64,000 nt of DNA from an uncultured Candidatus Saccharibacteria bacterium (GCA_964394985.1 CAYMZK010000004.1:12746-76745), one strand, 5' to 3'. Positions 4,463 to 57,504 are shown, counted from the stretch's first letter. Made by a program: numbers and translations. The notes: a model not told the origin generated them from the letters alone.

Positions 4463-5587
4463 ATGAAAAAGATATTTCTTGCGTTATTTTTTTTACTATT
4501 TGCTTTGCCGGTTTTTGCTCAAGAAGCAGATATAAATTTCTTTTATAGTCCAACTTGTCCTCATTGTCATGAAGAGCAAGCTTTTTTAGATGAGCTAGAA
4601 AAAGAATATCCAGATGTTACCGTTAATCGTTATTCAGTGACCGATAAAGAAAATGTTAAATTGCTAAAAGATTTTTATGATCGCTATGATGTTCCTGATC
4701 ACTACAAAGGAATGGTGCCGGCAACTTTTACTAGAGATAACTATTTTATTGGCTTTAATGACAATGTAGCTAAAGATATTGAGGATTGCTTTTTGCATTG
4801 TACTAAAGAGGATGTCTCTAAGGGAGAGGTTTCAGTTGTAGATATTGAGAGGAATATTACTGTTCCGATAATAGGAAATATTAATATAAAAAAATATTCT
4901 CTACCGGCTTTAGCGGTTATTTTGGGGACATTAGATGGTTTTAATGTTTGTTCTTTGGGTGCTTTAGTTTTGATTTTAGGACTTGTTTTAGCAATTAAGT
5001 CTCGTAAAAAGACTTTGCTTTTTGGCGGAATCTTTATTTTAACTACGGCAATTGTTTATGGTCTTTTAATTTTTATTTGGTATCAAGTATTTTCGTTCTT
5101 TTCTTCTTATTTAAAAATAATGCAGATTATTATTGGCTTAATAGGGATTATTGGCGGAATTTATTTTTTCAAACAATTTTTAAAGTATCGAAAATATGGT
5201 CCAACTTGTGAAGCTGGTGTTGGTAATGACTTGATTTCTAGATTCTCAAATAAATTTAAAAACTCTTTAAGCGAATCAAAAAATATCTTTTTATTAGCAT
5301 TAAGTATTCTTGTTTTTGCTGGCATTATTACTATTGTAGAATTTCCTTGTTCAGCGGTAGTTCCAGTTGCTTTTGCTGGAATATTGGCAGAGGCCAATCT
5401 TTCCGTTTTTTATTATTTGTTATATATAGTAATTTTTGTATTTTTCTATATGCTAGATGAGGTTGTCGTTTTTCTAATTGCTTTCTTTACTATGAAGGTT
5501 TGGTTAGCTTCAAATAAGGTGGTAACTTGGATAACTTTAATTGAAGCCATTGTTTTAATTGGCTTAGGTGTTTATTATTTATTATGA
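4463..5587 (+). CDS. thioredoxin-fold (CPHC) domain fused to a multi-pass CcdA/DsbD-like membrane domain
   Basis: Signal sequence, then FFYSPTCPHCHEEQAFL, then about 6 TM helices with the EFPCSAVVP motif. Confidence 0.65.
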   Translation: MKKIFLALFFLLFALPVFAQEADINFFYSPTCPHCHEEQAFLDELEKEYPDVTVNRYSVTDKENVKLLKDFYDRYDVPDHYKGMVPATFTRDNYFIGFNDNVAKDIEDCFLHCTKEDVSKGEVSVVDIERNITVPIIGNINIKKYSLPALAVILGTLDGFNVCSLGALVLILGLVLAIKSRKKTLLFGGIFILTTAIVYGLLIFIWYQVFSFFSSYLKIMQIIIGLIGIIGGIYFFKQFLKYRKYGPTCEAGVGNDLISRFSNKFKNSLSESKNIFLLALSILVFAGIITIVEFPCSAVVPVAFAGILAEANLSVFYYLLYIVIFVFFYMLDEVVVFLIAFFTMKVWLASNKVVTWITLIEAIVLIGLGVYYLL

Positions 5588-18172: not shown

Positions 18173-18318
18173 CACTTCGTGAGCTTATAATGTCTTAAAT
18201 TTTATATGTTTTGAGCTTTATTTCGAGTTCGAGGCACAGTATGTGATTTTTATCTTATTTATTTAATAAGAATAATTTCTTAATCTTAATTCTTACTTTG
18301 TTTTTTCTAAATATTCTG

Positions 18319-18628
18319 TCTAGGTTCAGATACATATGATACGCTCGCTCAGTTAATGTAATTAGGTTGCTCGGCTTGGCCGAGCAACCTAACGAGGAGC
18401 GTCTAGGTTCAGATAGATATTACACATCTGATTTTGTCCGATTGACCGGTCAATGGGACTATTTTTAGTATGAAGGTAGTATGAAGGTTGAACCTTCATA
18501 TATTGTGTTTTCATTGTTGTGCTCCACCTGGTGGAGCACAATGCTCCACCAGGTGGAGCACAATCGGGCGGAGCACTATGTTTTTCAAGGGGTTAGGTGT
18601 ATCATATCATATGGACCAGTACAAGCAC
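18319..18628 (+). repeat. modular multi-hairpin intergenic element, long copy (type B)
   Basis: Shares its ends and several modules with 57297-57470. Contains a 14-bp stem at 18362-18392, palindrome ATTGACCGGTCAAT at 18441-18454, hairpin ATGAAGGT-TGA-ACCTTCAT and tandem GTGCTCCACC/GGTGGAGCAC palindromes. Confidence 0.85.
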
Positions 18629-18656
18629 TTGACATGGGGGTATAATTTGCTATAAT
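18629..18656 (+). promoter_or_regulatory. sigma70-like promoter (TTGACA-16-TATAAT)
   Basis: TTGACA at 18629-18634 and TATAAT at 18651-18656. Homologous in position to the tRNA-operon promoter at 57471-57499. Confidence 0.7.
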
Positions 18657-18756
18657 GGAGGCAATAGGTAGATAATCTGTATAAACTACGGGTTATGCTC
18701 TACGTGTCAATCAAAAAGGTCCTTTTCGGGATCTTTTTGTTTTGATATAATTAACT

Positions 18757-18843
18757 CGTGGACTCGGGCTCGTAGTTTTATGTAGTTAAAATTCTACCTT
18801 TGACACGTAGAGTAACGGGTGCAAATCCCGTCGAGTCCACGCA
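18757..18843 (+). ncRNA. tRNA-like structured RNA element (non-canonical)
   Basis: 10-bp perfect helix CGTGGACTCG (18757-18766) / CGAGTCCACG (18832-18841). It directly abuts a T-arm-like hairpin ACGGG-TGCAAAT-CCCGT (18815-18831). The D and anticodon regions do not fit a cloverleaf. Confidence 0.4.
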
Positions 18844-23186: not shown

Positions 23187-24386
23187 ATGGCAGAAAAAGC
23201 TAAATTTGAAAGAGGGAAACCTCATGTAAATGTTGGTACTATTGGTCATGTTGACCATGGTAAAACAACTTTAACAGCTGCAATTTTACACTCTTTAGCT
23301 CTAAAGGGTTTAATTTCAGCTGAGAAGGCAGTTGATCAGATTGATTCAGCTCCTGAAGAAAAAGCGAGAGGTCTTACAATTTCTGTTTCTCATCTTGAAT
23401 ATGAGTCAGAAAAAAGACACTATGCTCACATTGACTGTCCTGGACACGCCGATTACATTAAGAATATGATTACCGGTGCTGCTCAAATGGATGGTGCTAT
23501 TTTAGTAGTATCTGGTCCTGATGGACCAATGCCTCAAACTAGAGAACACATTTTGTTAGCTAGACAGGTTGGTATTCCATCAATTGTCGTCTTTTTAAAT
23601 AAGACTGATCAAGTTGATGATCCAGAGATTCTCGAGTTAGTAGAATCTGAAATTAGGGAGTTATTAAACAAATACGAATTCCCTGGAGACGAAACCCCAA
23701 TTATTAAAGGATCAGCTCTTAAAGCTCTAGAAGCAAGCTCTGCTGATGATGAAAATGTTAAGGCAGTTTTAGAATTAATTCAAAAACTAGATGAATTTAT
23801 TCCAGAGCCACAAAGAGATGTTGATAAACCTTTCTTAATGGCCGTTGAGGATGTTTTCTCAATTGAAGGTAGAGGAACCGTTGCTACTGGAAGAATTGAA
23901 AGAGGAGCTATTAACGCTAATGAAGAAGTTGAATTAGTTGGAATTAAAGACACTACTAAAACAACTGCAGTTAGTGTTGAGATGTTTAACAAGATTCTTG
24001 ATAGGGGTGAGGCTGGAGATAATGTTGGCATTCTTTTAAGAGGGACTAAAAAAGAAGATATTGAAAGAGGTCAGGTATTAGCTAAACCAGGATCAGTTAC
24101 TCCTCATACTGAATTTGAAACTGAAATTTATGTTCTTACCAAAGAAGAAGGGGGAAGACATACTCCATTTTTCAAAGGATATAAGCCACAGTTTTACATT
24201 AGAACCACCGATGTAACTGGAGATGTTGAACTTCCTGAAGGAACTGAGATGGTTATGCCTGGCGATACAGTAACCTTAAAAGTTAAACTAATTGTTCCTG
24301 TTGCTTTAGAGGAAAAACAAAGATTTGCTATTAGAGAAGGAGGAAGAACTGTAGGTGCAGGAGTAGTAACAAAAATTATAAAATAA
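23187..24386 (+). CDS. tuf: elongation factor Tu
   Basis: [26 protein letters not shown] and GGRHTPF. Confidence 0.98.
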
Positions 24387-24395
24387 GAGAACCAG

Positions 24396-24413
24396 CCCCG
24401 ATTTTTATCGGGG
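24396..24413 (+). other. hairpin CCCCGAT-TTTT-ATCGGGG between tuf and rpsJ
   Basis: 7-bp stem with a 4-nt loop and no clear U-tract. Possible processing or pause site. Confidence 0.4.
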
Positions 24414-24435
24414 TTGATTCGTTAAAAAGTTAACA

Positions 24436-24774
24436 ATGCCGGTCAAGCAGAAAAAAGAAGAGTCTGGGGTTAATCAAAAATTAAGAATTAAACTCAGGGC
24501 TTACGATTACAAAGTAATAGACAATAGTGCTCGACAGATTGTTGAGACTGTTTTAAGATTTGGAGTTCAGGTTTCTGGTCCAGTTCCCTTGCCAACGGAA
24601 ATAAAGAAATACACTGTTAATCGTTCTACTTTTGTTCATAAAGACGCTAGAGAGCAGTTTGAAATGAGAATTCATAAAAGATTAATTGACATTATTAATC
24701 CTAACCCGAATGTAATTGATGCTTTGATGAATTTAACCTTGCCTGCTGGTGTTGACATTGAAATTAAATCGTAG
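24436..24774 (+). CDS. rpsJ: 30S ribosomal protein S10
   Basis: [10 protein letters not shown]...GPVPLPT...[28 protein letters not shown]. Confidence 0.97.
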
Positions 24775-24821
24775 TAGGATACTGCTACAAGCATATATCT
24801 GTCCCAATGGGGCGTATGATA

Positions 24822-24845
24822 TGCCTGCCTGCCGGCAGGCAGGCA
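24822..24845. repeat. perfect 24-nt GC-rich palindrome TGCCTGCCTGCCGGCAGGCAGGCA
   Basis: Read directly. Lies in an unusual 117-nt rpsJ-rplC spacer. Its right arm overlaps a second hairpin, GGCAAATG (24842-24849) / CATTTGCC (24868-24875), which is followed by a T-run. Confidence 0.9.
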
Positions 24846-24891
24846 AATGACACAGTTTGAGGCTGGGCATTTGCCCCAGTTTTTGTTTATT

Positions 24892-25467
24892 ATGAGATTT
24901 ATTTTAGGAAAAAAATTAGAAATGTCACAGATATTTGATGAGAATGGAAAGGTTATACCAGTAACCTTAATTGAAGCTGGTCCTTGTTTTGTCACTCAGA
25001 TAAAGAATAATTCTGTTCAAGTTGGTTTTGAAAGACTAAGAGAGAAAAAAGTAAAAAAACCTCAAAAAGACAAGCCTTACAGATATTTTAAAGAACAAAA
25101 AACAAAAAACACCGATCAATTTAAATTGGGAATGAAAATTACTTTAAATGGATTTAAAGAAGGAGATAAAGTAGTTGTTTCTGGCATAACTAAAGGAAAA
25201 GGATTTCAGGGAGGAGTTAAAAGGCATGGTTTTGCTGGAAGAGACGCTACTCATGGAACCAAGCACGAAGAAAGAACTATAGGTTCTATTGGTTCTGGTT
25301 TTCCTCAAAGAGTTATCAAAGGAAGAAAAATGCCAGGAAGGATGGGTAGTGATAGAGTTTCAATTAAGGGATTGAAAATTGTTAAAATAAAAGATAATAT
25401 AGTAGCTATAAAAGGAGCTATTCCAGGCTATAAAGGAACTTTATTAGAGATAAGAACATGCAAGTAA
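24892..25467 (+). CDS. rplC: 50S ribosomal protein L3
   Basis: MRFILGKKLEMSQIFDENGKVIPVTLIEAGPC...GKGFQGGVKRHGF. ATG at 24892 is preferred; the track start lies inside the structured spacer. Confidence 0.95.
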   Translation: MRFILGKKLEMSQIFDENGKVIPVTLIEAGPCFVTQIKNNSVQVGFERLREKKVKKPQKDKPYRYFKEQKTKNTDQFKLGMKITLNGFKEGDKVVVSGITKGKGFQGGVKRHGFAGRDATHGTKHEERTIGSIGSGFPQRVIKGRKMPGRMGSDRVSIKGLKIVKIKDNIVAIKGAIPGYKGTLLEIRTCK

Positions 25468-26081
25468 CAGTTTACAATCAAAATAAAGAAGAGATTAAAA
25501 AGATTGAATTGCCTAAAGATGTTTTTGGCGTAGATTTGAACCTAAATTTAATTCATCAAGTAGTTTTAAGTCAACAATCAAATAGAAGACAAGGAACTGC
25601 TCAAGCTAAAATGAGAGGAGAAGTTAGAGGGGGTGGAAGAAAACCTTGGCGTCAAAAAGGAACTGGAAGAGCTAGGCATGGATCTAATCGTTCTCCGATC
25701 TGGATTGGTGGAGGAGTTACTTTTGGCCCTAGAGCTGATCGAAATTACAAAAAAAGAATTCCAGCTAAAATGAGAAGAAAAGCTTTATTAATGGCTCTTT
25801 CTTCTAAGGCTAAGGATGGATCAATTATTATTATTGATAAATTAGATTTTAATAAACCAAGCACTAAAGAAATGAGTAATGTTTTAAATAAGTTTTTTAA
25901 AGGTTCTGGCTTATTAGTGCTATCTAAAATGAATAAAAGTTTAATTCTTTCAGTTAGAAATATACCAAAGAAAAATTCTATTCAAGCAACAGACTTAAAT
26001 GTTTTAGACTTATTAAATCATAAATATTTAGTTGTTTCCCCGGCGGGAATTAAAAAGATTAAAGAAACATTTGTAAAATAG
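25458..26081 (+). CDS. rplD: 50S ribosomal protein L4
   Basis: RRQGTAQAKMRGEVRGGGRKPWRQKGTGRARHGS. Confidence 0.96.
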   Translation: MQVTVYNQNKEEIKKIELPKDVFGVDLNLNLIHQVVLSQQSNRRQGTAQAKMRGEVRGGGRKPWRQKGTGRARHGSNRSPIWIGGGVTFGPRADRNYKKRIPAKMRRKALLMALSSKAKDGSIIIIDKLDFNKPSTKEMSNVLNKFFKGSGLLVLSKMNKSLILSVRNIPKKNSIQATDLNVLDLLNHKYLVVSPAGIKKIKETFVK

Positions 26082-26082
26082 C

Positions 26083-26463
26083 ATGGCTTTAAAGAATATA
26101 TTTAAACATAAAAAAGAGGAGCCAAAGAAAGAGATTAAGAAAGAGATTAAGAAAGAAGTGGTTAAAAAACCAAGTAGTTCCAAGTTGGCTTATAAGGTTA
26201 TTGAAGCGCCACATATTACCGAAAAAGCTACTGTTTTAGCTGAAAGTAATAAGTATGTTTTTAAAGTTTTTCCTAGAACAAATAAAGTAGAAATTAAAAA
26301 AGCGATTGAAGATCTTTATGGAGTAGAGGTAATTGGCGTAAATATTATCAAAGTACCAAGAAAGAGAAAAAGAATCGGTCGAACCAGAGGTTTTAAAAAG
26401 GGCTACAAAAAAGCTGTAATTGAAATTAAAAAAGGGCAAAAAATAGAAATAACAGCAAGATAA
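26083..26463 (+). CDS. rplW: 50S ribosomal protein L23 (Lys-rich N-terminal extension)
   Basis: PHITEKA...KYVFKV...[17 protein letters not shown]. Operon position. Confidence 0.93.
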
Positions 26464-26464
26464 T

Positions 26465-27262
26465 ATGAGAAGAAAAAAGGTATCAGCAAAAAAGATATTA
26501 AGCAAAAAAGAACCTGAAAAAGGACTGCTTTTGACCTTAAAATCTAGAGCCGGTAGAGGAAATTCTGGAAAAATTACTGTTCGTCATAAGGGAGGGGGAG
26601 TTAAAAAAAGATATCGAGTAGTAGATTTTAATCAAAAAAGAAAAGATATGAAAGCTAAGGTTGTTGCTTTAGAGTATGATCCTTATAGAACTGCCTTTTT
26701 GATGCTTTTAGAATATGAAGATAAAAGCAAAAGATATCGAATTGCGCCAGATGGAATTAAAGTTGGTGATACAGTTATTTGTTCTCCAAAAGCAGAAATT
26801 AAAGATGGTAATCGAACTTTAGTAGGCAATATTCCAGTAGGAACCTTAATCTATAATATTGAACTAATTCCAGAGCATGGTGGTAAAATCGTTAGATCAG
26901 CTGGAAGCTCAGCCAAGGTTTTAGCTAATGAAGGAAAATACACTAACTTAGAAATGCCGTCAGGAGAGATCAGGAGAGTTTCTCAGAAATGTTATGCTAC
27001 TATTGGAACAGTTTCTTATCCAGAATGGAGATATGTTAATATCAAAAAAGCAGGAAGCAAGAGATTAAAAGGAGTTAGGCCAAAAGTTAGAGGAAGTGCT
27101 ATGAATCCAGTTGATCATCCTCATGGAGGGGGAGAAGGAAGAACAGGAATTGGACTAAAGCATCCAAAAACCCCCTGGGGAAAACCTGCTCTAGGAGTTA
27201 AAACTAGAAAAAGAAAGAAATGGACAAATAAATTAATCGTTAAAAGAAGAAAGAAGAAGTAA
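26465..27262 (+). CDS. rplB: 50S ribosomal protein L2
   Basis: [16 protein letters not shown]...[19 protein letters not shown]. Confidence 0.97.
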
Positions 27263-27264
27263 TT

Positions 27265-27540
27265 ATGTCAAGAAGCATTAAAAAAGGTCCATACGTAGAT
27301 GAAAGATTATTAAAGAAAGTTGAGAAGTCTGATCAAAATCAAGTAATTAAAACTTGGTCTAGATCAGCTACTGTTGTTCCAGAAATGATTGGATATACTT
27401 TTGGAATTCATAATGGAAAAGAACATATTCCAGTAAAAATAACAGAAGAAATGGTTGGTCATAAATTAGGTGAATTTTCTCCGACCACTAAATTTTCAAG
27501 GCATGGAGGTAAAATGCAAAGAGAATTAGAAAAGAAATAA
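27265..27540 (+). CDS. rpsS: 30S ribosomal protein S19
   Basis: [11 protein letters not shown]...TWSR...[10 protein letters not shown]. Confidence 0.97.
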
Positions 27541-27541
27541 T

Positions 27542-28024
27542 ATGAAAGTTCAAAGTCAGTTAAAATATTTAAGAATTGCACCAAGAAAGGTTAGATTAAT
27601 GGCCGATATGATTAGAGGGAAAAAAGTTGAGGAAGCTCAAACAGCTTTAAGCTTTACTGTTAAAAAGTCATCTGAGCCATTATTAAAACTTTTAAATACT
27701 GCTATTTCTGACGCAAAGAATAATTTTCAGTTAGACCCAAGTAATTTAATTATTTCTGAGATAAGGGTTGATGGCGGTCCAATATTAAAAAGATGGAGAG
27801 CTAGATCAAGAGGGATGGTGGCTCCGATCCAAAAGAAAACTTCCCATGTCACTGTAATTTTAAATGAAATAGAGGCTGGAAAAAGAATTAAAAAGAAAGA
27901 AGTTAAAAAAGAAGAAAAGGTAATTAAAGAAGAAAAACCCAAAACCAAAAGACCGGTAATTGAAACACCAAAGCCAAAATCATCTAAGGGATTAAAAAAG
28001 ATATTTAGAAGAAAATCCATATAA
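27542..28024 (+). CDS. rplV: 50S ribosomal protein L22 (Lys/Glu-rich C-terminal extension)
   Basis: LRIAPRKVRLMADMIRGKKVEEA...RWRARSRGMVAPIQKKTSH. Confidence 0.95.
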   Translation: MKVQSQLKYLRIAPRKVRLMADMIRGKKVEEAQTALSFTVKKSSEPLLKLLNTAISDAKNNFQLDPSNLIISEIRVDGGPILKRWRARSRGMVAPIQKKTSHVTVILNEIEAGKRIKKKEVKKEEKVIKEEKPKTKRPVIETPKPKSSKGLKKIFRRKSI

Positions 28025-28137
28025 AATGCCAATCTACAAATGATACGCAAATACTACGAATTTTCAGGAAAATTATTAATTATTTAAATTATTCGTATCA
28101 TTTGCATAAATTCGCATTAAATTAGCATTATAACACT
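28025..28137 (+). repeat. type A ~110-nt hairpin element, copy 1 (between rplV and rpsC)
   Basis: Near-identical to 31923-32039, with 4 substitutions. 11-bp stem CAAATGATACG (28037-28047) / CGTATCATTTG (28094-28104). Phased GCATWA triplet near the 3' end. Confidence 0.9.
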
Positions 28138-28782
28138 ATGTCACATAAAGTACACCCAAAAGCTTATAGAATTAAAGGATTAAGTGATTGGCAGTCACGG
28201 GGTTTTTATAATAATCCAGCTATTCAACTAGAAGAAGATTATAAAATAAGAGAATATTTAACTAGAAAATTAAAGAGTCTTGGCGTTGAAAAAATAGAGA
28301 TTGAAAGATATACCAACAAAATGAATATTATTATCTTTAGCTCTAGACCAGGATTAATTATTGGAAGAGGGGGTGAAGGAGTCGAAAAACTTAAACAAGA
28401 ACTAGAGAATAAGATTATTAGACCAACAAAAAGGAAGTTTGAATTAAGGTTAGAAATTAGAGAAATTAAAGATCCGTGGACTTCTGCTAGTTTAAGTGCT
28501 CAGTCTATTGCTCAGCAAATTGAAAAAAGAATGCCTTATCGAAGAGTGTTAAAGCAAGCCTTAAGTAAAATAATGACCCACAAAGAAATTAAAGGAGCTA
28601 GAATCCAAGTTTCTGGAAGATTAAATGGAGTAGAGATCGCTAGAAGAGAGTGGGTTGGAAAAGGTCAGCTTCCCCGTCAAACAATTAGAGCGGATATTGA
28701 TTATTACCAGGTCAACGCAGTTTGTTCTTATGGAGTGATTGGAGTAAAAGTTTGGATATATAAAGGTGAAAAATTTGAATAA
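28138..28782 (+). CDS. rpsC: 30S ribosomal protein S3
   Basis: MSHKVHPKAYRI...GRGGEGVEKLK (KH domain)...GRLNGVEIAR. Confidence 0.96.
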   Translation: MSHKVHPKAYRIKGLSDWQSRGFYNNPAIQLEEDYKIREYLTRKLKSLGVEKIEIERYTNKMNIIIFSSRPGLIIGRGGEGVEKLKQELENKIIRPTKRKFELRLEIREIKDPWTSASLSAQSIAQQIEKRMPYRRVLKQALSKIMTHKEIKGARIQVSGRLNGVEIARREWVGKGQLPRQTIRADIDYYQVNAVCSYGVIGVKVWIYKGEKFE

Positions 28783-28785
28783 TTT

Positions 28786-29193
28786 ATGTTACAGCCAAAA
28801 AAAGTAAAACATAGAAAAAGATTTGTTGGAACTTCTAGAAAAGGTGTTGATCAAAGATCAAATACTGTTGATTTTGGTAGTTATGGACTAAAGGCTATGG
28901 GAGAAAAATGGATTACTTCTAGACAAATAGAATCAGCAAGAAGGGCAATTATTAGATATTTAAGAAAAGGGGGAAAGCTTTGGATTAGAATTTTTCCAGA
29001 TAAACCAGTTACTAGAAAAGGAACTGAAGTTCCAATGGGAGGTGGAAAGGGAGCAGTAGAGTTTTATGTTTTTCCAGTTAGGCCAGGTAGAATTCTCTTT
29101 GAATTAGAAGGTATTCCAGAAGAAATGGCTAGAGAAGCTTTTAGAAAAGCTGGTGATAAGTTGCCAATTAAAACTAAGTTTATAAAGAGATAA
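28786..29193 (+). CDS. rplP: 50S ribosomal protein L16
   Basis: [11 protein letters not shown]...[10 protein letters not shown]...PMGGGKG. Confidence 0.97.
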
Positions 29194-29351
29194 TGAAAGA
29201 ATCAATTAAACAATTAGAAGAAAAAAGAGAAAAGCTAAGAGAGCTTAGATTTGACTTATCAGCTGGAAAAATTAAGAATGTAAGAGAGATAAGAAAGATT
29301 AGAAAAGAAATTGCCAGAATATTAACTAAGCTAAATAATAAACATGCCTAA
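29193..29351 (+). CDS. rpmC: 50S ribosomal protein L29
   Basis: Not in the ORF track (52 aa). Translated by hand as [57 protein letters not shown] overlap with rplP and overlap with the rpsQ start. Confidence 0.85.
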   Translation: MKESIKQLEEKREKLRELRFDLSAGKIKNVREIRKIRKEIARILTKLNNKHA

Positions 29352-29571
29352 GAGAAGATTAAAAGGAATTATAATTTCTAATAAAATGCAGAATACTGTG
29401 GTTGTTAAGGTTGAAAGAATTAAAGAACATCCAAAGTATAAAAAAAGATATCGATTTCATAAAAACTATAAAGCTCATTATGATAAAGGAGATTATAAAA
29501 TAAATGATGAAGTGATAATTGAAGAAACAAAACCAATTAGTAAAGATAAAAAATGGATAATTATACAATAA
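29344..29571 (+). CDS. rpsQ: 30S ribosomal protein S17
   Basis: [29 protein letters not shown]...ISKDKKW. Confidence 0.95.
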
Positions 29572-29572
29572 T

Positions 29573-29944
29573 ATGATTCAACCAGAGACAGTTTTAAAAG
29601 TTGCAGATAATTCAGGAGCCAAGGTGATTAAGTGCATCAAGGTTTTAGGTGGATCTAAGAAAAGATATGCTCGAATCGGGGATATTGTTGTTGCTAGCGT
29701 TAAGGTGGCTGAACCACGAAGACCAGTTAAAAAGCACGACGTGATTAAAGCAGTAATTGTTAGGCAGAAAAAAGAACTAAGAAGGCCTGATGGATCATAT
29801 ATTAGATTTGATGATAACGCGGCTATTATTCTTGAATCTTCTGGAAACAATCCAAGAGGGGGGAGAATTTTTGGTCCAATTGCTAGAGAATTAAGAGAAA
29901 AAGGTTTTAGTAAAATTATTAATTTAGCTAATGACATTGTATGA
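29573..29944 (+). CDS. rplN: 50S ribosomal protein L14
   Basis: [17 protein letters not shown]...IRFDDNAAI...GPIAREL. Confidence 0.97.
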
Positions 29945-30246
29945 AGATTAAGAAAGGTGACCAAGTTTTAATAATATCAGGAAAAGATAAAGGTAAGAAA
30001 GGTAAGGTTATTGAAGCTCTTCCAAAAGAAGATAGAATTATAGTTGAGAATGTTAATTTAAAGAAAAAGCATGTTAGGCCCAAGAAGTCTGGAGAAAAAG
30101 GACAAATGGTTGAACTGGCTATGCCCTTTGATGTTTCTAATGTAAAAGTAGTTTGCTCTAAGTGTAGCAAAGCTAGTCGGGTGGGGTACAAAAAGGAAGG
30201 TGATAAAAAACATAGAATTTGTAAAAAATGTAATCAAGTAATATGA
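29941..30246 (+). CDS. rplX: 50S ribosomal protein L24 (C-terminal CxxC...CxxC)
   Basis: [22 protein letters not shown] (KOW). C-terminus has CSKC...CKKC. Confidence 0.95.
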
Positions 30247-30791
30247 TTGAAATTAAAGAAAATTACAAGCAAATAATCCCAGAATTAAAAGAGAAGTATC
30301 AGAATATAATGGCTATTCCTCGTATAAAGAAGGTGGTTGTTAATACTGGACTGGGAAAAATGGTGGCTACAGCTACTTCAGATGAAAAGAAAAAGACTCT
30401 TGAAGCGGTGATAAACGATCTTAGCGCTATTTGCGGTCAAAAGGTGGTTTTAACTAAAGCTAAAAAATCTATTGCTGGCTTTAAGTTAAGAGAAGGAATG
30501 CCTGTCGGAGCGAAAGTTACCTTAAGGGGCCCTATAATGTATGACTTTTTAAGCAGATTAATTAACATTGCTCTTCCAAGGTCTAGAGACTTTCAAGGAA
30601 TTAGTTTAAATTCTTTTGACAATCAAGGGAATTTAACTATTTCTATTAAAGAACAGATTATTTTTCCAGAAATTTCTCCAGAAAAAGCTAAAAAAATATT
30701 TGGATTTGAAATTACAGTTGTTACCAGTGCTAAAAGAAAAGAAGAAGGACTAGAGCTATTTAGATTATTAAAGTTTCCATTAAAAAAATAA
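30243..30791 (+). CDS. rplE: 50S ribosomal protein L5
   Basis: [14 protein letters not shown]...[18 protein letters not shown]...RDFQG. Confidence 0.96.
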
Positions 30792-30796
30792 TTATT

Positions 30797-30982
30797 ATGG
30801 CCAAGAAATCAGATATTGCAAAAGCAAATAAAAAACCAAAGTATAGTTCTAGAAAAGAGAATCGTTGTTTCAAGTGTGGTCGAAGACACGGATATATTAG
30901 AAACTTTGGCTTATGTCGAGTTTGTTTTAGAGAGATGGCTAATAAAGGTGAAATTCCTGGAGTTAAAAAATCATCTTGGTAA
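30797..30982 (+). CDS. rpsN: 30S ribosomal protein S14 type Z (zinc-binding, 61 aa)
   Basis: [23 protein letters not shown]. Confidence 0.96.
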
Positions 30983-30988
30983 AAAAAT

Positions 30989-31369
30989 ATGACAGATCCA
31001 ATTACAGACATGTTAAATAGAATAAGAAATGCCCAAGCTGTTTCACGCAAAACAGTAGAGGTTCCTTTTTCAAAAATTAAGTTTGAGATTGCTAAAATAT
31101 TAGAACAGCAAGGTTTTGTTAACTCTGTTGTCAAAAAAGGCAGAGTTCCTAGTAAGATAGTTGAAATTAGCTTAAAATATCCTTCAACTATTTTAGGGCT
31201 TAAGAGAGTTTCTAGGCCAGGACAAAGAATTTATTCTGGCTTTAAAACTATTAAAAGTTCTAAAGGTAAATATGGTTTAGTAATTATTTCTACCCCGAAG
31301 GGGTTAATGACTGACAGAGATGCTAGGAAAAATAAAATTGGAGGAGAAATAATTTGTGAAATTTGGTAA
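30989..31369 (+). CDS. rpsH: 30S ribosomal protein S8
   Basis: MTDPITDMLNRIRNA...ISTPKGLMTDRDARKNKIGGEIICEIW. Confidence 0.97.
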   Translation: MTDPITDMLNRIRNAQAVSRKTVEVPFSKIKFEIAKILEQQGFVNSVVKKGRVPSKIVEISLKYPSTILGLKRVSRPGQRIYSGFKTIKSSKGKYGLVIISTPKGLMTDRDARKNKIGGEIICEIW

Positions 31370-31376
31370 TAATATT

Positions 31377-31922
31377 ATGTCAAGAATAGGTAAAAAAGAA
31401 ATTTTAATACCGAAAGAAGTAACTGTTGAAATAACAGATAATAATAAGGTTTCGGTAAAAGGACCCAAGGGCGAATTAGAAAGATACATTCGACCGGAAA
31501 TTAAGATTGAAAAAAAAGATGATCAGATTGCTGTTCAACCTTACAAGGAAACCAAGCGAACTAAGTCCTTTTGGGGTTTGAGCCGAACTATAATCGCTAA
31601 TATGATTAAGGGCGTAACTGAAGGATATGAAAAGAAATTAGAAATTAATGGCGTTGGTTATCGAGCCAATTTAGAGGGAGAGAACCTAGTATTGTTGGTA
31701 GGTTTTTCTCATCCAGTAAAGATAGAAAAAGTAGAAGGAATTAAGTTTGAAGTAGAAAAAAATATTGTTACTGTTTCCGGAATAGACAAAGAATTAGTTG
31801 GTCAAGTTGCTGCTAAAATTAGAAAAGTTCGTCCACCAGAGCCATATAAAGGAAAGGGTATTAGATATGTGGGTGAATATGTAAGAAGAAAATCAGGTAA
31901 AAAGGCCGTAGGCGCTGAGTAG
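31377..31922 (+). CDS. rplF: 50S ribosomal protein L6
   Basis: MSRIGKKEILIP...VKGPKGEL...GVGYRA...PEPYKGKGIRY. ATG at 31377 is preferred. Confidence 0.95.
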   Translation: MSRIGKKEILIPKEVTVEITDNNKVSVKGPKGELERYIRPEIKIEKKDDQIAVQPYKETKRTKSFWGLSRTIIANMIKGVTEGYEKKLEINGVGYRANLEGENLVLLVGFSHPVKIEKVEGIKFEVEKNIVTVSGIDKELVGQVAAKIRKVRPPEPYKGKGIRYVGEYVRRKSGKKAVGAE

Positions 31923-32039
31923 AAAAAATGCCAATCTACAAATGATACGCAAATACTACGAATTTTCAGGAAAATTATTAATTATTTAAATTATTCGCAT
32001 CATTTGCATAAATTCGCATTACATTTGCATTATAACAAT
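31923..32039 (+). repeat. type A ~110-nt hairpin element, copy 2 (between rplF and rplR)
   Basis: Near-identical to 28025-28137, in the same orientation and the same position relative to the downstream ATG. Confidence 0.9.
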
Positions 32040-32360
32040 ATGTTAGAGAAAAAAGTTAAAAAAAATAGAAGACATAGAAGGGTTAGAGCTAAAATTAAAG
32101 GAACAGCTGAGATTCCAAGGCTTTGTATTTTTAGATCTAATAGGTATATTTATGCTCAAGCTATAAACGACGATAATGGTCAAACTTTAATGAGTGCTAA
32201 AGGAGAATTAACTAAGGCTAAAGATGTTGGTCAAATTATCGCCAAAAAGGCTTTAGAGAAAAACATTAAGAAAATAGTCTTTGATCGAGCTGGATATAAA
32301 TATCATGGTCGAGTTAAAGATTTGGCTGAAGGAGCTCGTGAAGCTGGATTAAATTTTTAA
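32040..32360 (+). CDS. rplR: 50S ribosomal protein L18
   Basis: [31 protein letters not shown]...[27 protein letters not shown] at 32040 is preferred; the track start lies in the repeat. Confidence 0.95.
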
Positions 32361-39766: not shown

Positions 39767-41000
39767 TATCATGCCACCGGGAAAAAAAATAGAACCAGTG
39801 GAGACAAATCCTCAAGAAGAGATTTCTCTAAAGGTTAAAACCCCCGGAAAAAAAAGAAAATGGATTATTGGTTTAGTTGTCTTTCTTCTTTTAGTCGGAG
39901 TTTCTCTTTGGGTTTCTTTTGCTTTTTCTGAAGTCAAAATAGCTATTTTTCCTAAATTAGATAAAGTGGCTTTAACTGAGACAGTAACGGTTAAACTAGA
40001 CTCTTCTTTGGATTTAGAAAATAATATTATTCCTGGTCAAAAGGTAGATAATGAAAAGATTTTAGCTCAAGATTTTCAGGCTACCGGGAAGGCGACCAAA
40101 GAAGCCAAAGCTACGGGAACAATTACAGTATACAATGCTTATTCCTCAACTCCAAGAACTTTTATTCCTTCTCGTTTTGTTTCAGCCGATGGCAAATTGT
40201 TTTGGTCAACTGAAAAAATTAGCGTGCCTGGATATACTAAAGAGGGGAATAAAGTTATTCCTGGAGAGGTTCAAGTCCCTGTTATTGCTAGTGAAGCTGG
40301 GCCAGAGTATAATATAGAGGCGACTACTTTTGCTATGCCGGGATTAGCTGGAACAGCTCTTTATACCACTATTTATGCTAAGTCTTTTGAGCCGATGACT
40401 GGTGGCTATATTGGTGAGTCAAGAAAGATTACAGAATCAGATTTAGAAAATGCTAAAAATGTCTTAATTGATAAGACCAAAGTTGAGGGTAAAGAGATTT
40501 TAAAAAAATCTTTACCCTTAGATCTTGTTCTTCTTGAAGAAACTTTAACTCAAGAAGTTTTAGAAGGTAAGTTTTCTCATTCATTGAGTGACGAAGTGGA
40601 TAATTTTAATTATGAAGTAAAGGTTAGATCTGAAGGGGTTGCTTTTAGTCGGTTAGATATAGAATTATTAGCTAAAGAAAGAATTAATTCAATAATTGAT
40701 AAAGATAAAACAATTAAAAAGGACAGTTTTAAGATAGAGTATAATTTAAAGGAAGTTAGTCCTGATGAAATGACTATTGAAATAGTTTTTAGTGTTGATG
40801 TATATACTGATATTAACTTAGAAGAAGCTAGAAAGGCTGTTACGGGGAAGTCTTTAGAGGAAACCTCTTTATTTTTAAAGTCCTTGTCTGGAATAGAAAA
40901 GGTTAAAATAGATAAAGGTAGCTTTATGCGAAGAAGCGTTCCAAGCTCTTTAGATAAAGTGAAAATCGATCTAATACTTGACCCCGCAGAAGAAATTTGA
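39747..41000 (+). CDS. hypothetical membrane-anchored protein (N-terminal TM, large extracytoplasmic domain)
   Basis: MPKKFYDIMPPGKK, then a TM helix, then a beta-rich domain. The last 5 codons and the stop lie inside the repeat element at 40982-41057. Confidence 0.5.
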   Translation: MPKKFYDIMPPGKKIEPVETNPQEEISLKVKTPGKKRKWIIGLVVFLLLVGVSLWVSFAFSEVKIAIFPKLDKVALTETVTVKLDSSLDLENNIIPGQKVDNEKILAQDFQATGKATKEAKATGTITVYNAYSSTPRTFIPSRFVSADGKLFWSTEKISVPGYTKEGNKVIPGEVQVPVIASEAGPEYNIEATTFAMPGLAGTALYTTIYAKSFEPMTGGYIGESRKITESDLENAKNVLIDKTKVEGKEILKKSLPLDLVLLEETLTQEVLEGKFSHSLSDEVDNFNYEVKVRSEGVAFSRLDIELLAKERINSIIDKDKTIKKDSFKIEYNLKEVSPDEMTIEIVFSVDVYTDINLEEARKAVTGKSLEETSLFLKSLSGIEKVKIDKGSFMRRSVPSSLDKVKIDLILDPAEEI

Positions 41001-41057
41001 TTTAGATTTTTTTAAAAAAATCTAAACTGTGGAACAGATCAAATTTTCTCTGCGGGG
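40982..41057. mobile_element. short (76-bp) member of the CCCCGYAGA-TIR MITE-like family
   Basis: TIRs CCCCGCAGAAGAAATTTGAT / ATCAAATTTTCTCTGCGGGG, flanked by TTGA on both sides. Internal palindrome TTTAGATTTTTTT/AAAAAAATCTAAA. Confidence 0.7.
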
Positions 41058-41086
41058 TTGACTAAATAATTGGATTTTGTTAGACT
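41058..41086 (+). promoter_or_regulatory. promoter upstream of infA (TTGACT-17-TAGACT)
   Basis: TTGACT at 41058-41063 and TAGACT at 41081-41086. Confidence 0.45.
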
Positions 41087-47372: not shown

Positions 47373-47510
47373 CCCCGTAGAGAAATTTCAATACATTCGC
47401 TGTAAGCGAATAAAAGAATACGGGGAATAATAAAGTATAATTAATAAATAGAAAAACAAACATAAGAATTTCAAGAAAGATGAGCAAACTAATTGAAATT
47501 CTTCTACGGG
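47373..47510 (+). mobile_element. CCCCGYAGA-TIR MITE-like element, full-length copy 1 (upstream of murA)
   Basis: Differs from 52208-52346 by 2 substitutions and 1 terminal nt. TIRs CCCCGTAGAGAAATTTCAAT / ATTGAAATTCTTCTACGGG. Flanked by ACATG (47368-47372) and ACATG (47511-47515). Confidence 0.8.
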
Positions 47511-47512
47511 AC

Positions 47513-52207: not shown

Positions 52208-52346
52208 CCCCGTAGAGAAATTTCAATACATTCGCTGAAAGCGAATAAAAGAATACGGGGAATAATAAAGTATAATTAATAAATAGAAAAACAAATATAA
52301 GAATTTCAAGAAAGATGAGCAAACTAATTGAAATTCTTCTACGGGG
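52208..52346 (+). mobile_element. CCCCGYAGA-TIR MITE-like element, full-length copy 2 (between rseP and proS)
   Basis: TIRs CCCCGTAGAGAAATTTCAAT / ATTGAAATTCTTCTACGGGG. Flanked by TATGA (52203-52207) and TATGA (52347-52351). Confidence 0.85.
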
Positions 52347-57287: not shown

Positions 57288-57296
57288 AGAACTCTA

Positions 57297-57470
57297 TCTA
57301 GGTTCAGATACATATGATACGCTCAGTTAATTTATTACGTTTGGTAACTGGGTTGCTCGGCTTGGCCGAGCAACCCTGGGACTATTTTTAGTATGAAGGT
57401 TGAACCTTCATATATTGTGCTTCAAGGGTCTTTTGGTGTATCATATCATATGGACCACCAGTACAAGAAC
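57297..57470 (+). repeat. modular multi-hairpin intergenic element, short copy (type B)
   Basis: Collinear with 18319-18628 minus three inserted modules. Closing helix CATATGATAC (57311-57320) / GTATCATAT (57438-57446). Confidence 0.85.
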
Positions 57471-57499
57471 TTGAGTTTTTTTCTTTAATATACTATAAT
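57471..57499 (+). promoter_or_regulatory. tRNA-operon promoter (TTGAGT-17-TATAAT)
   Basis: TTGAGT at 57471-57476 and TATAAT at 57494-57499. The first tRNA nucleotide lies about 6 nt downstream. Confidence 0.7.
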
Positions 57500-57504
57500 G
57501 GTTG

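Follow-up and report, generated by a model that had tools for sequence, protein, structure and literature searches.

What is a structured repeat of little more than 110 nt doing, twice, inside the S10/spc ribosomal-protein (r-protein) operon? The 64,000-nt stretch analysed here (GCA_964394985.1, CAYMZK010000004.1:12746-76745, deposited as an uncultured Candidatus Saccharibacteria bacterium and hereafter called the window) comes from a Patescibacteria (candidate phyla radiation, CPR) contig of 33% GC on which nearly all genes lie on the + strand, and the S3 homologues of this contig carry the labels Patescibacteria or Nealsonbacteria. An earlier note on the window had described two direct copies of the repeat, differing by four substitutions, both in sense orientation and both ending at the start codon of the downstream gene, and had listed a miniature inverted-repeat transposable element (MITE), a regulatory or processing RNA and a protein-binding site as candidate identities. 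Our analysis indicates that the element is probably a new MITE-like palindromic repeat family, moving between the stop-to-start spacers of the r-protein operon.

The description of the two copies agrees with the sequence. Copy A (28025-28137, + strand) fills the interval from the stop codon of L22 (TAA, 28022-24) to the ATG of S3 (28138), and copy B (31923-32039, + strand) that from the stop codon of L6 (TAG, 31920-22) to the ATG of L18 (32040); apart from the four substitutions, B has four additional A at its 5' edge. The flanking genes, all on the + strand and identified by Pfam, are rplV (L22, 27542-28024) and rpsC (S3, 28138-28782) around copy A, and rplF (L6, 31377-31922, with a likely true start at ATG 31377 rather than GTG 31356) and rplR (L18, 32040-32360) around copy B. 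A 27-mer of the element matches copies A and B alone in the window (0 matches expected by chance), and neither nhmmer nor a search with the end repeat alone found a further copy above chance there. The repeat is genuine and not an assembly artefact, since the copy-specific single-nucleotide polymorphisms (SNPs) recur in an independently made Logan assembly of SRR7048227 (L001), whose 3,889-nt contig begins within copy A and stops within copy B. L023, a Logan contig with a further 2 kb of the source genome, contains no copy.

The earlier note had also stressed the tight spacing of the operon. This holds for the stretch from L3 to SecY, where all junctions other than the two occupied ones measure -14 to +6 nt, but two long spacers had been overlooked, S10|L3 (118 nt, with the true L3 start at ATG 24893) and EF-Tu|S10 (49 nt). 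Insertion of 113-117 nt removes the tight gene coupling present at the remaining junctions. That the element ends exactly at a start codon is in part inevitable, with native spacers of no more than 0-8 nt. Copy B also affects annotation: its A>T change (TTAGCAT to TTTGCAT, window 32004-32039) deletes an in-frame TAG, and open reading frame (ORF) callers therefore extend L18 by 12 codons upstream, from TTG 32004, which is likely an annotation artefact of this copy.

Relatives' S10/spc operons were retrieved via their S3 homologues, and the exact 20-mer TCATTTGCATAAATTCGCAT was scanned over 185,579 species genomes and JGI metagenomes, a pattern that diverged copies (e.g. of the L007 type) would escape. 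Three contigs were returned, with all matches inside S10/spc operons and one or two per organism. The search for further copies that the earlier note proposed proved productive, with homologous copies in three other Patescibacteria genomes: L003 has one at S14|S8 and L004 (likewise L006) has two, at L5|S14 and S14|S8, all on the same strand as in the window, and the single copy of L007 (likewise L008), at L14|L24, is reversed (minus-strand nhmmer scores of 87.6-109 bits). The family occupies five junctions in four genomes (L22|S3, L6|L18, L5|S14, S14|S8 and L14|L24), one copy being inverted, and these sites contradict a restriction to orthologous, vertically inherited junctions. It was not found in the operons of the other sampled lineages (L002, L010, L013, L017 and L020-L022). 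The syntenic L22|S3 and L6|L18 junctions, whose comparison had likewise been proposed, are tight (2-8 nt) in L002, L003, L004 and L007. Occupancy also changes between close relatives: L004 and L007 have 98% protein identity and 93% identity at 4-fold sites, and since they have zero occupied junctions in common, at least three gains or losses are implied within about 7% neutral divergence. In L004 the L5 stop codon comes from the TATAA of the element, and L5 is two residues longer.

All copies fall between 113 and 123 nt, with an intact form of about 115 nt. In L007 this form comes close to a perfect palindrome of 115 nt (-43.8 kcal/mol, z -7.1), and the family model also recognises itself in reverse complement (E 1e-4 to 6e-7). 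The two arms flank an AT-rich centre, and each is built of TTNGCAT motifs repeated in phase every 9-11 nt. In copy A the left (stop-proximal) arm spans 28024-28063 and the right (start-proximal) arm 28087-28134, both on the + strand; the phased motifs of the latter include GCAT at 28104, 28114 and 28125, which are the GCATWA motifs 10-11 nt apart that the earlier note had recognized. The arms of copy B lie on the + strand at 31926-31965, where the left arm of copy A recurs with 100% identity, and at 31989-32036, which holds three of the four differences between A and B. The imperfect inverted repeats reported at the ends (AATGCCAAT / ATTAGCATT) are present as well. In full, the ends read TGNTATAATRCMAAT / ATTKGCATTATANCA, and L007 has both of them intact. 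Six of six copies have an intact right end. The window and L003 copies have a truncated or degenerate left end, without the outer ~8 nt at the stop-proximal side; copy A, for example, has TAAAATGCC in place of TGTTATAATGC. The left arm of copy A further contains ATGATAYGCAAAT, common to a motif of the S10|L3 leader. Whichever arm is there, the start-proximal end always reads ...GCATTATAACA(N1-3)ATG (6/6 copies). Coding potential was considered for the top strand and rejected, as the frame and length of its mini-ORFs vary from copy to copy.

Different junctions, both orientations and turnover between close relatives argue that the element is a mobile repeat rather than a gene-specific leader, and it is not an r-protein autoregulatory leader. 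The MITE option of the earlier note therefore fits best, given five junctions in four genomes, both orientations, presence or absence between close relatives and inverted-repeat ends. In the scheme that we favour, a small non-coding palindromic repeat would circulate in a Patescibacteria clade and land in the tiny stop-to-start spacers of S10/spc. It may be spread by some transposase, or by microhomology-mediated copying between similar TAA..TATG junctions; the latter route would account for a left-truncated form that moves, for the low copy number and for confinement to the operon. It would be tolerated in that the upstream gene keeps its stop codon or receives one from the element, whose other end lies directly against the downstream ATG, and in the window it would simply be co-transcribed with the operon as a weakly structured spacer.

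Several observations weigh against a typical MITE. First, one or two copies per genome, with all scan matches in S10/spc, are unlike typical MITEs, although the operon restriction is not significant for the window's two copies alone (~0.09, an estimate from the share of window junctions within the operon). Second, no target-site duplication could be defined: models with TA, TATAA, TAACAT or TATG were tried, and none fits all of five filled-versus-empty site comparisons, which rather resemble replacement of a native spacer of 1-10 nt, from the last sense codon to TATG. TA stands at 10/12 ends and is inseparable from the AT-rich end repeat, and S14|S8 in L004 fits a TAACAT duplication that the other sites do not. 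Third, the left-truncated form has moved all the same. Fourth, no transposase partner turned up in a search that covered end-repeat matches in the window, none of them further ones above chance, and two patterns in viral contigs, which gave no match. Lastly, one arm is nearly invariant, which calls for selection or recent horizontal spread and is not predicted of a purely selfish element. At 4-fold sites of the host genes the window, L003 and L004 lineages are saturated (48-56% identity), and across the same genomes the start-proximal arm is 94-98% identical, the other arm (including the left arm of copy A) 75-82% and the centre 48-74%.

How does the element compare with known systems? It has no sequence in common with Correia elements, Chunjie or REPINs. 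Correia elements of Neisseria (CREE/NEMIS) are palindromic non-autonomous repeats of ~100-150 bp with inverted ends and strain-variable sites; they lie by or between genes and are co-transcribed, their ends can create -10-type boxes, and their RNA hairpin is an RNase III substrate (PMC2649163). In behaviour they come closest, being palindromic and intercistronic with promoter boxes at their ends and variable sites. The corresponding boxes here, TGNTATAAT at the element ends, are promoter-like at the sequence level only; the likeness is one of how the elements would work, with no sequence homology, in a genome that is not a Neisseria genome. Correia elements number hundreds of copies genome-wide, with TA duplications and an IHF site, whereas the present element has one or two copies, in S10/spc only, and no demonstrable duplication. 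It also has no sequence relation to them by eye, one of its arms is far more conserved, and its box points inward and antisense.

Palindromic repeats within operons are known elsewhere. The ERIC/IRU repeats of enterobacteria are palindromic, lie between cistrons in operons and are transcribed in polycistronic mRNA. Chunjie, a MITE of Geobacter uraniireducens, is by the account cited in PMC10969869 a palindromic repeat between cistrons in operons whose structure is kept and which is present in polycistronic mRNA. The element resembles Chunjie and ERIC as an operon-internal palindromic repeat; those families differ in their many intergenic copies and in ends defined by terminal inverted and direct repeats (TIR/DR). 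For the S10/spc r-protein cluster and for CPR bacteria no Chunjie- or ERIC-type family has been reported, ribosomal protein and Patescibacteria go unmentioned in a 2024 review of prokaryotic MITEs, and a full-text literature search gave no report of MITEs in CPR bacteria or r-protein operons.

The 57-141 bp attC sites of integrons, too, are imperfect palindromes between genes, of which the bottom strand folds and functions. The motifs TTATAAC and GTTATAA of the element each have two mismatches to the RYYYAAC and GTTRRRY core sites, its flanks are core r-protein genes rather than cassettes, and there is no integrase context. REPINs are ~100-nt elements of inverted halves that form a long single-strand hairpin, are non-autonomous and vertically persistent over long periods, and are mobilised by RAYT transposases; the form that matters is the strand-specific hairpin in single-stranded nucleic acid (PMC3116915, PMC3337134). 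The strand-specific, single-strand long hairpin of the element recalls them, but REP units are short palindromes with a GTAG-type head, whereas the element's arms are direct arrays of a 10-nt motif; REPINs are also extragenic, and a genome with a single RAYT gene has tens to hundreds of them, against one or two intercistronic copies in one operon here. R-protein leaders such as the S10/L4 leader and the spc/S8 site lie, like the element, within r-protein operons immediately upstream of a cistron. They are tied to one junction, conserved and structured on the sense strand, and the element occupies five junctions in both orientations with a weak sense fold and no Rfam match.

If the conserved arm is under selection, what would it serve? 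We rank an antisense promoter with hairpin RNA ahead of a sense initiation region or promoter, and the latter ahead of a protein-binding array. The earlier note left the better-folding antisense strand out of account, and proposed an 11-bp stem (28037-47 with 28094-104). This stem is present in copy A, but one substitution breaks it in copy B and it is not kept in relatives, its 5' arm being changed in L003 and L004 without compensation. On the sense strand copy A folds at -15.0 kcal/mol (z -2.1) and copy B at -11.0 kcal/mol (z +0.18), the z-scores of the five same-orientation copies are -2.1, +0.18, +0.96, -2.8 and -2.5, and the RNAalifold consensus, of 15 pairs, shows 0 compensatory changes, several of its pairs being broken.

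It is the antisense strand that has both the better fold and a promoter-like box. The predicted antisense hairpin of copy A (28025-28129, minus strand) reaches -30.1 kcal/mol (z -4.9), a stability attained by 0/200 shuffles, and is followed by UUUUAUAU; that of copy B (31927-32020, minus strand) reaches -26.1 kcal/mol (z -2.5) and is followed by UUUUUUCUA. In L003 the antisense strand likewise has a hairpin and then UUUUAUUUUA. Over the five same-orientation copies, antisense energies of -30.1, -26.1, -18.8, -30.2 and -33.9 kcal/mol compare with sense energies of -15.0, -11.0, -7.5, -19.7 and -23.7 kcal/mol in the same order. Taken in the frame of the element, the bottom strand is 10-15 kcal/mol more stable than the top in 6/6 copies, including the inverted L007 copy, where the same element strand is the mRNA strand and is again the better (-43.8 vs -31.4). 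When arm is aligned with arm, a comparison that is strand-neutral, all transition-type mismatches are G.U wobbles on the bottom strand (5:0, 4:0, 4:0, 3:0, 3:0 and 3:0), counts that are not independent as the six copies are related by descent. In the bottom-strand consensus of 28 pairs, 11 one-sided changes retain pairing and 3 cells are broken.

No such strand asymmetry was seen in three other repeat families. Two general causes of it were considered and rejected. The top strand of the element has a GC skew of -0.26 to -0.29, against +0.13 to +0.30 throughout the surrounding + strand, and replication-linked mutation bias fails since, judged by the genome-wide skew (G>C on +), it should have acted the other way. 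Nor does the operon seem to select against mRNA hairpins in general, other families forming sense hairpins of -27 to -34 kcal/mol there.

The promoter-like box is TGTTATAAT, an extended -10-type box that lies on the minus strand at 28127-28135 in copy A and at 32029-32037 in copy B; it is found at the start-proximal end in 6/6 copies and faces into the element. Across the 64-kb window there are 14 sites of TGNTATAAT where 4.4 are expected, and 0/100 shuffles reach 14. Twelve are on the + strand, seven of them 6-37 nt ahead of a gene or tRNA start, and the only two minus-strand sites in the window are those in copies A and B. Among the + strand sites are 4448, 19351, 36597, 39074, 18743, 23141 and 34604, and the box often stands just 6-10 nt ahead of an ATG (genes at 4463, 39089, 36615 and 19370). 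No Shine-Dalgarno motif was found upstream of any gene examined in the window. The pattern suggests that the organism uses extended -10 promoters, with frequent leaderless or near-leaderless mRNAs. Nine nucleotides past the antisense TGTTATAAT an ATG opens a bottom-strand ORF (28075-28116 and 31977-32018, minus strand) of 13 codons in the window and L004 copies (MRIYAND...) and 22 codons in L003. As a coding sequence it was rejected: its N-terminal part is conserved only where the DNA is invariant, its length and C-terminus vary, and no protein-level selection was seen.

Provided that the element is mobile, these features make it a tentative possibility, to which we give rather less than an even chance, that an inward antisense extended -10 promoter drives a hairpin RNA of about 100 nt. 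At the conserved start-proximal arm, TGTTATAAT matches the extended -10 grammar of the genome and points backwards, and would on these grounds fire an antisense RNA of ~100 nt, namely the strand predicted to form the long G.U-containing hairpin and then a U-run. Apart from the shared descent of the copies, other points tell against an antisense RNA. No double compensatory changes were found in the bottom-strand consensus and no -35 box for the antisense TGTTATAAT, a few nucleotides separate the U-run from the base of the stem, and the TGNTATAAT box may simply be the end repeat of the element.

The rival that survives best places the function on the sense strand, although we consider it unlikely. 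Here the start-proximal arm would have been domesticated, its ~50 nt by the ATG serving the downstream cistron either as an internal promoter for a leaderless S3 or L18 mRNA (TTGCAT-N18-CATTAT-N6-ATG) or as a fixed translation-initiation region, making up for the stop/start coupling that is lost, in an organism that has no Shine-Dalgarno sites. It would account for an arm that stays 94-98% identical despite saturated 4-fold sites and for the constant distance of 2-3 nt from GCATTATAACA to ATG in 6/6 copies of either orientation, and it is in keeping with the absence of Shine-Dalgarno motifs, with the -10 box 6-10 nt before the ATG of several genes, with the loss of tight coupling on insertion of 113-117 nt and with the L007 start-proximal arm, which reads TTGCAT-N16(TGG)-TATTAT-N6-ATG. 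On the + strand, however, the window copies match the promoter consensus at 7/12 positions without TGN, a sigma-70 promoter scan made no call, and the conserved TAGCATTAT is a poorer -10 than the TGGTATTAT of L007. The genome's signature TGNTATAAT is on the opposite strand, and translation-initiation regions normally need no 50 invariant nucleotides.

The fullest form of the antisense proposal, in which the element is a self-contained mobile antisense-RNA gene (extended -10, ~100-nt G.U hairpin and U-run) that specifically colonises S10/spc junctions in Patescibacteria and regulates r-protein expression, has no more than a modest chance of being right. Its RNA would then either pair with the operon mRNA over a long stretch immediately ahead of a start codon, with processing or translational control as the outcome, or work in trans via AUGCAAAUG, a motif that the element shares with the antiterminator side of the conserved, putative S10|L3 attenuator described below. 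Slightly more doubtful is a DNA protein-binding array, in which the four TTNGCAT motifs per arm, at a phase of 9-11 bp, would bind a transposase (as subterminal repeats), a host regulator or a nucleoid protein. The helical-repeat spacing of GCAT at 28095 (degenerate in A), 28104, 28114 and 28125, within the invariant arm, speaks for such an array, as does an unrelated family in relatives with the same grammar of phased TTAACAT arms. No candidate protein was identified, however, the left arm has the same motifs inverted and yet diverges freely, and a site in double-stranded DNA leaves the strand-specific wobble pattern unexplained.

A cis-regulatory or processing RNA on the sense strand, that is, a hairpin cleaved (e.g. 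by RNase III) or bound by an r-protein to tune the downstream genes, is very unlikely. Co-transcription with the operon is unavoidable for the element, the mRNA hairpin of the L007 copy is very strong (-43.8 kcal/mol), the left arm has the 15-mer ATGATATGCAAATGC in common with the conserved, terminator-containing S10|L3 leader, and Correia elements are RNase III substrates (PMC2649163). In sense folding, however, the window copies differ little from shuffled sequence (z -2.1 and +0.18), copy B, L003 and L004 no longer have the 11-bp stem unbroken and show 0 compensatory pairs, and the five junctions have no common gene, are entered in both orientations and lack the element in most relatives. 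Rfam 15 gave no credible match, either at the gathering threshold over the whole window or at E <= 10 over 24300-32300; the sense-strand option of the earlier note, with no stem kept, no covariation and no gene-tied position, is not supported. Weakest of all, and scarcely credible, is the reading as an isolated, neutral duplication of local origin or as an assembly artefact, with neither family nor biology behind it: there are only two copies in 64 kb, 3.9 kb apart and 96% identical, but the independent assembly has both with their own SNPs, and homologous copies at other junctions in three other genomes rule out the neutral recent duplication that the earlier note had allowed for.

The repeat is not alone in these operons, and these streamlined genomes tolerate small palindromic repeats in tight gene junctions, as several unrelated families occupy operon junctions in relatives. 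The CCCCGTAGAG family is a MITE-like repeat of ~140 nt with 20-bp inverted ends (CCCCGTAGAGAAATTTCAAT), present outside the operon at 47374-47512 and 52208-52346 of the window, at 40981-41058 as a short relative, and at 8840-8983 of L010 (L5|S14, in the r-protein operon). Its window copies show clean 5-bp duplications (TATGA and ACATG) that restore the stop/start overlap, end exactly at the downstream ATG, and fold equally well in sense and antisense (z -5.6 to -9). The ACAT family has phased TTAACAT/TCAACAT arms around a GACGACG..CGTCGTC centre, an arm grammar equal to that of the element studied here with a different motif, and occupies five S10/spc junctions in one orientation (L010 7263-7363, 10942-11027 and 11454-11557; L020 1057-1119 and 2669-2776). 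Hairpin inserts of ~20 nt, TCCGCCnnnGGCGAGA(T)AAA (TCCGCC...GGCGAG), recur at r-protein junctions in several relatives (L002 1861-1882; L003 3438-3458; L010 9560-9580; L013 7464-7484, 8898-8924 and 9306-9329).

The S10|L3 spacer, conserved and ~118-150 nt long, spans 24775-24892 in the window, 2165-2294 in L007, 2341-2460 in L010 and 2657-2775 in L013. Its core reads TATATCTG...GGGGCGTATGATATGC..AAATGC and is followed by an intrinsic terminator, CTGGGCATTTGCCC(C)AG-T5 (window 24864-24884; in RNA form CUGGGCAUUUGCCCAG-U5). It looks like an attenuator or leader for L3 and downstream genes, since an upstream GCAAATG complements the terminator's CATTTGC; no Rfam match was found for it. The L3 start at 24847 given by the ORF caller is wrong, ATG 24893 being the likely one. 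A 20-nt GC-rich perfect palindrome, CTGCCTGCCGGCAGGCAGGC, splits the conserved ATGATATGC|AAATGC of this leader in the window (24825-24844) and in L013 (~2706-2726), and is absent from L007 and L010.

Other insertions and non-coding stretches were also seen. In L007 (2877-3289) and L010 (3043-3351) an antisense insertion interrupts the S10 operon midway: the L3|L4 junction, 310-413 nt long, holds an ORF on the minus strand, which in L007 (2923-3099, 58 aa) has no Pfam match. In L022 an unrelated 64-nt L22|S3 insert (325-388) has a hairpin, CTTCGCTAAAGCGAAG, followed by TTGATT..N14..TATAAT, and looks like a terminator plus promoter that splits the operon. Elsewhere in the window, long non-coding stretches at 18173-18765 and 57290-57500, upstream of tRNA-Ser and of a tRNA-Met/Met/Asp cluster, have mosaic modules in common (TCTAGGTTCAGATACATATGATACGCTC, the hairpin GGTTGCTCGGCTTGGCCGAGCAACC, ATGAAGGTTGAACCTTCAT and GGTGTATCATATCATATGGACC) and match no Rfam family at the gathering threshold; a perfect 22+22-nt palindrome lies at 18517-18563.

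The S10/spc cluster is the most conserved bacterial gene array and the backbone of CPR phylogenomics, and is usually assumed to be free of mobile DNA. In this clade of ultra-small Patescibacteria its stop-to-start spacers have been invaded repeatedly by several small palindromic families, which turn over between near-identical genomes. The practical consequences are false N-terminal extensions and wrong starts in gene calling, contigs that break inside the operon, and an operon synteny that is harder to use. Three features of the family studied here are unexpected of a purely selfish repeat, namely a near-invariant arm, a strand-specific hairpin and a backward promoter box that fits the host grammar. 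Should the antisense RNA prove real, the element would be a rare mobile regulatory RNA module within an essential operon and among the first cis-element families described for CPR bacteria, and should that RNA also act as a regulator, it would amount to a transposable regulator of ribosomal-protein synthesis.

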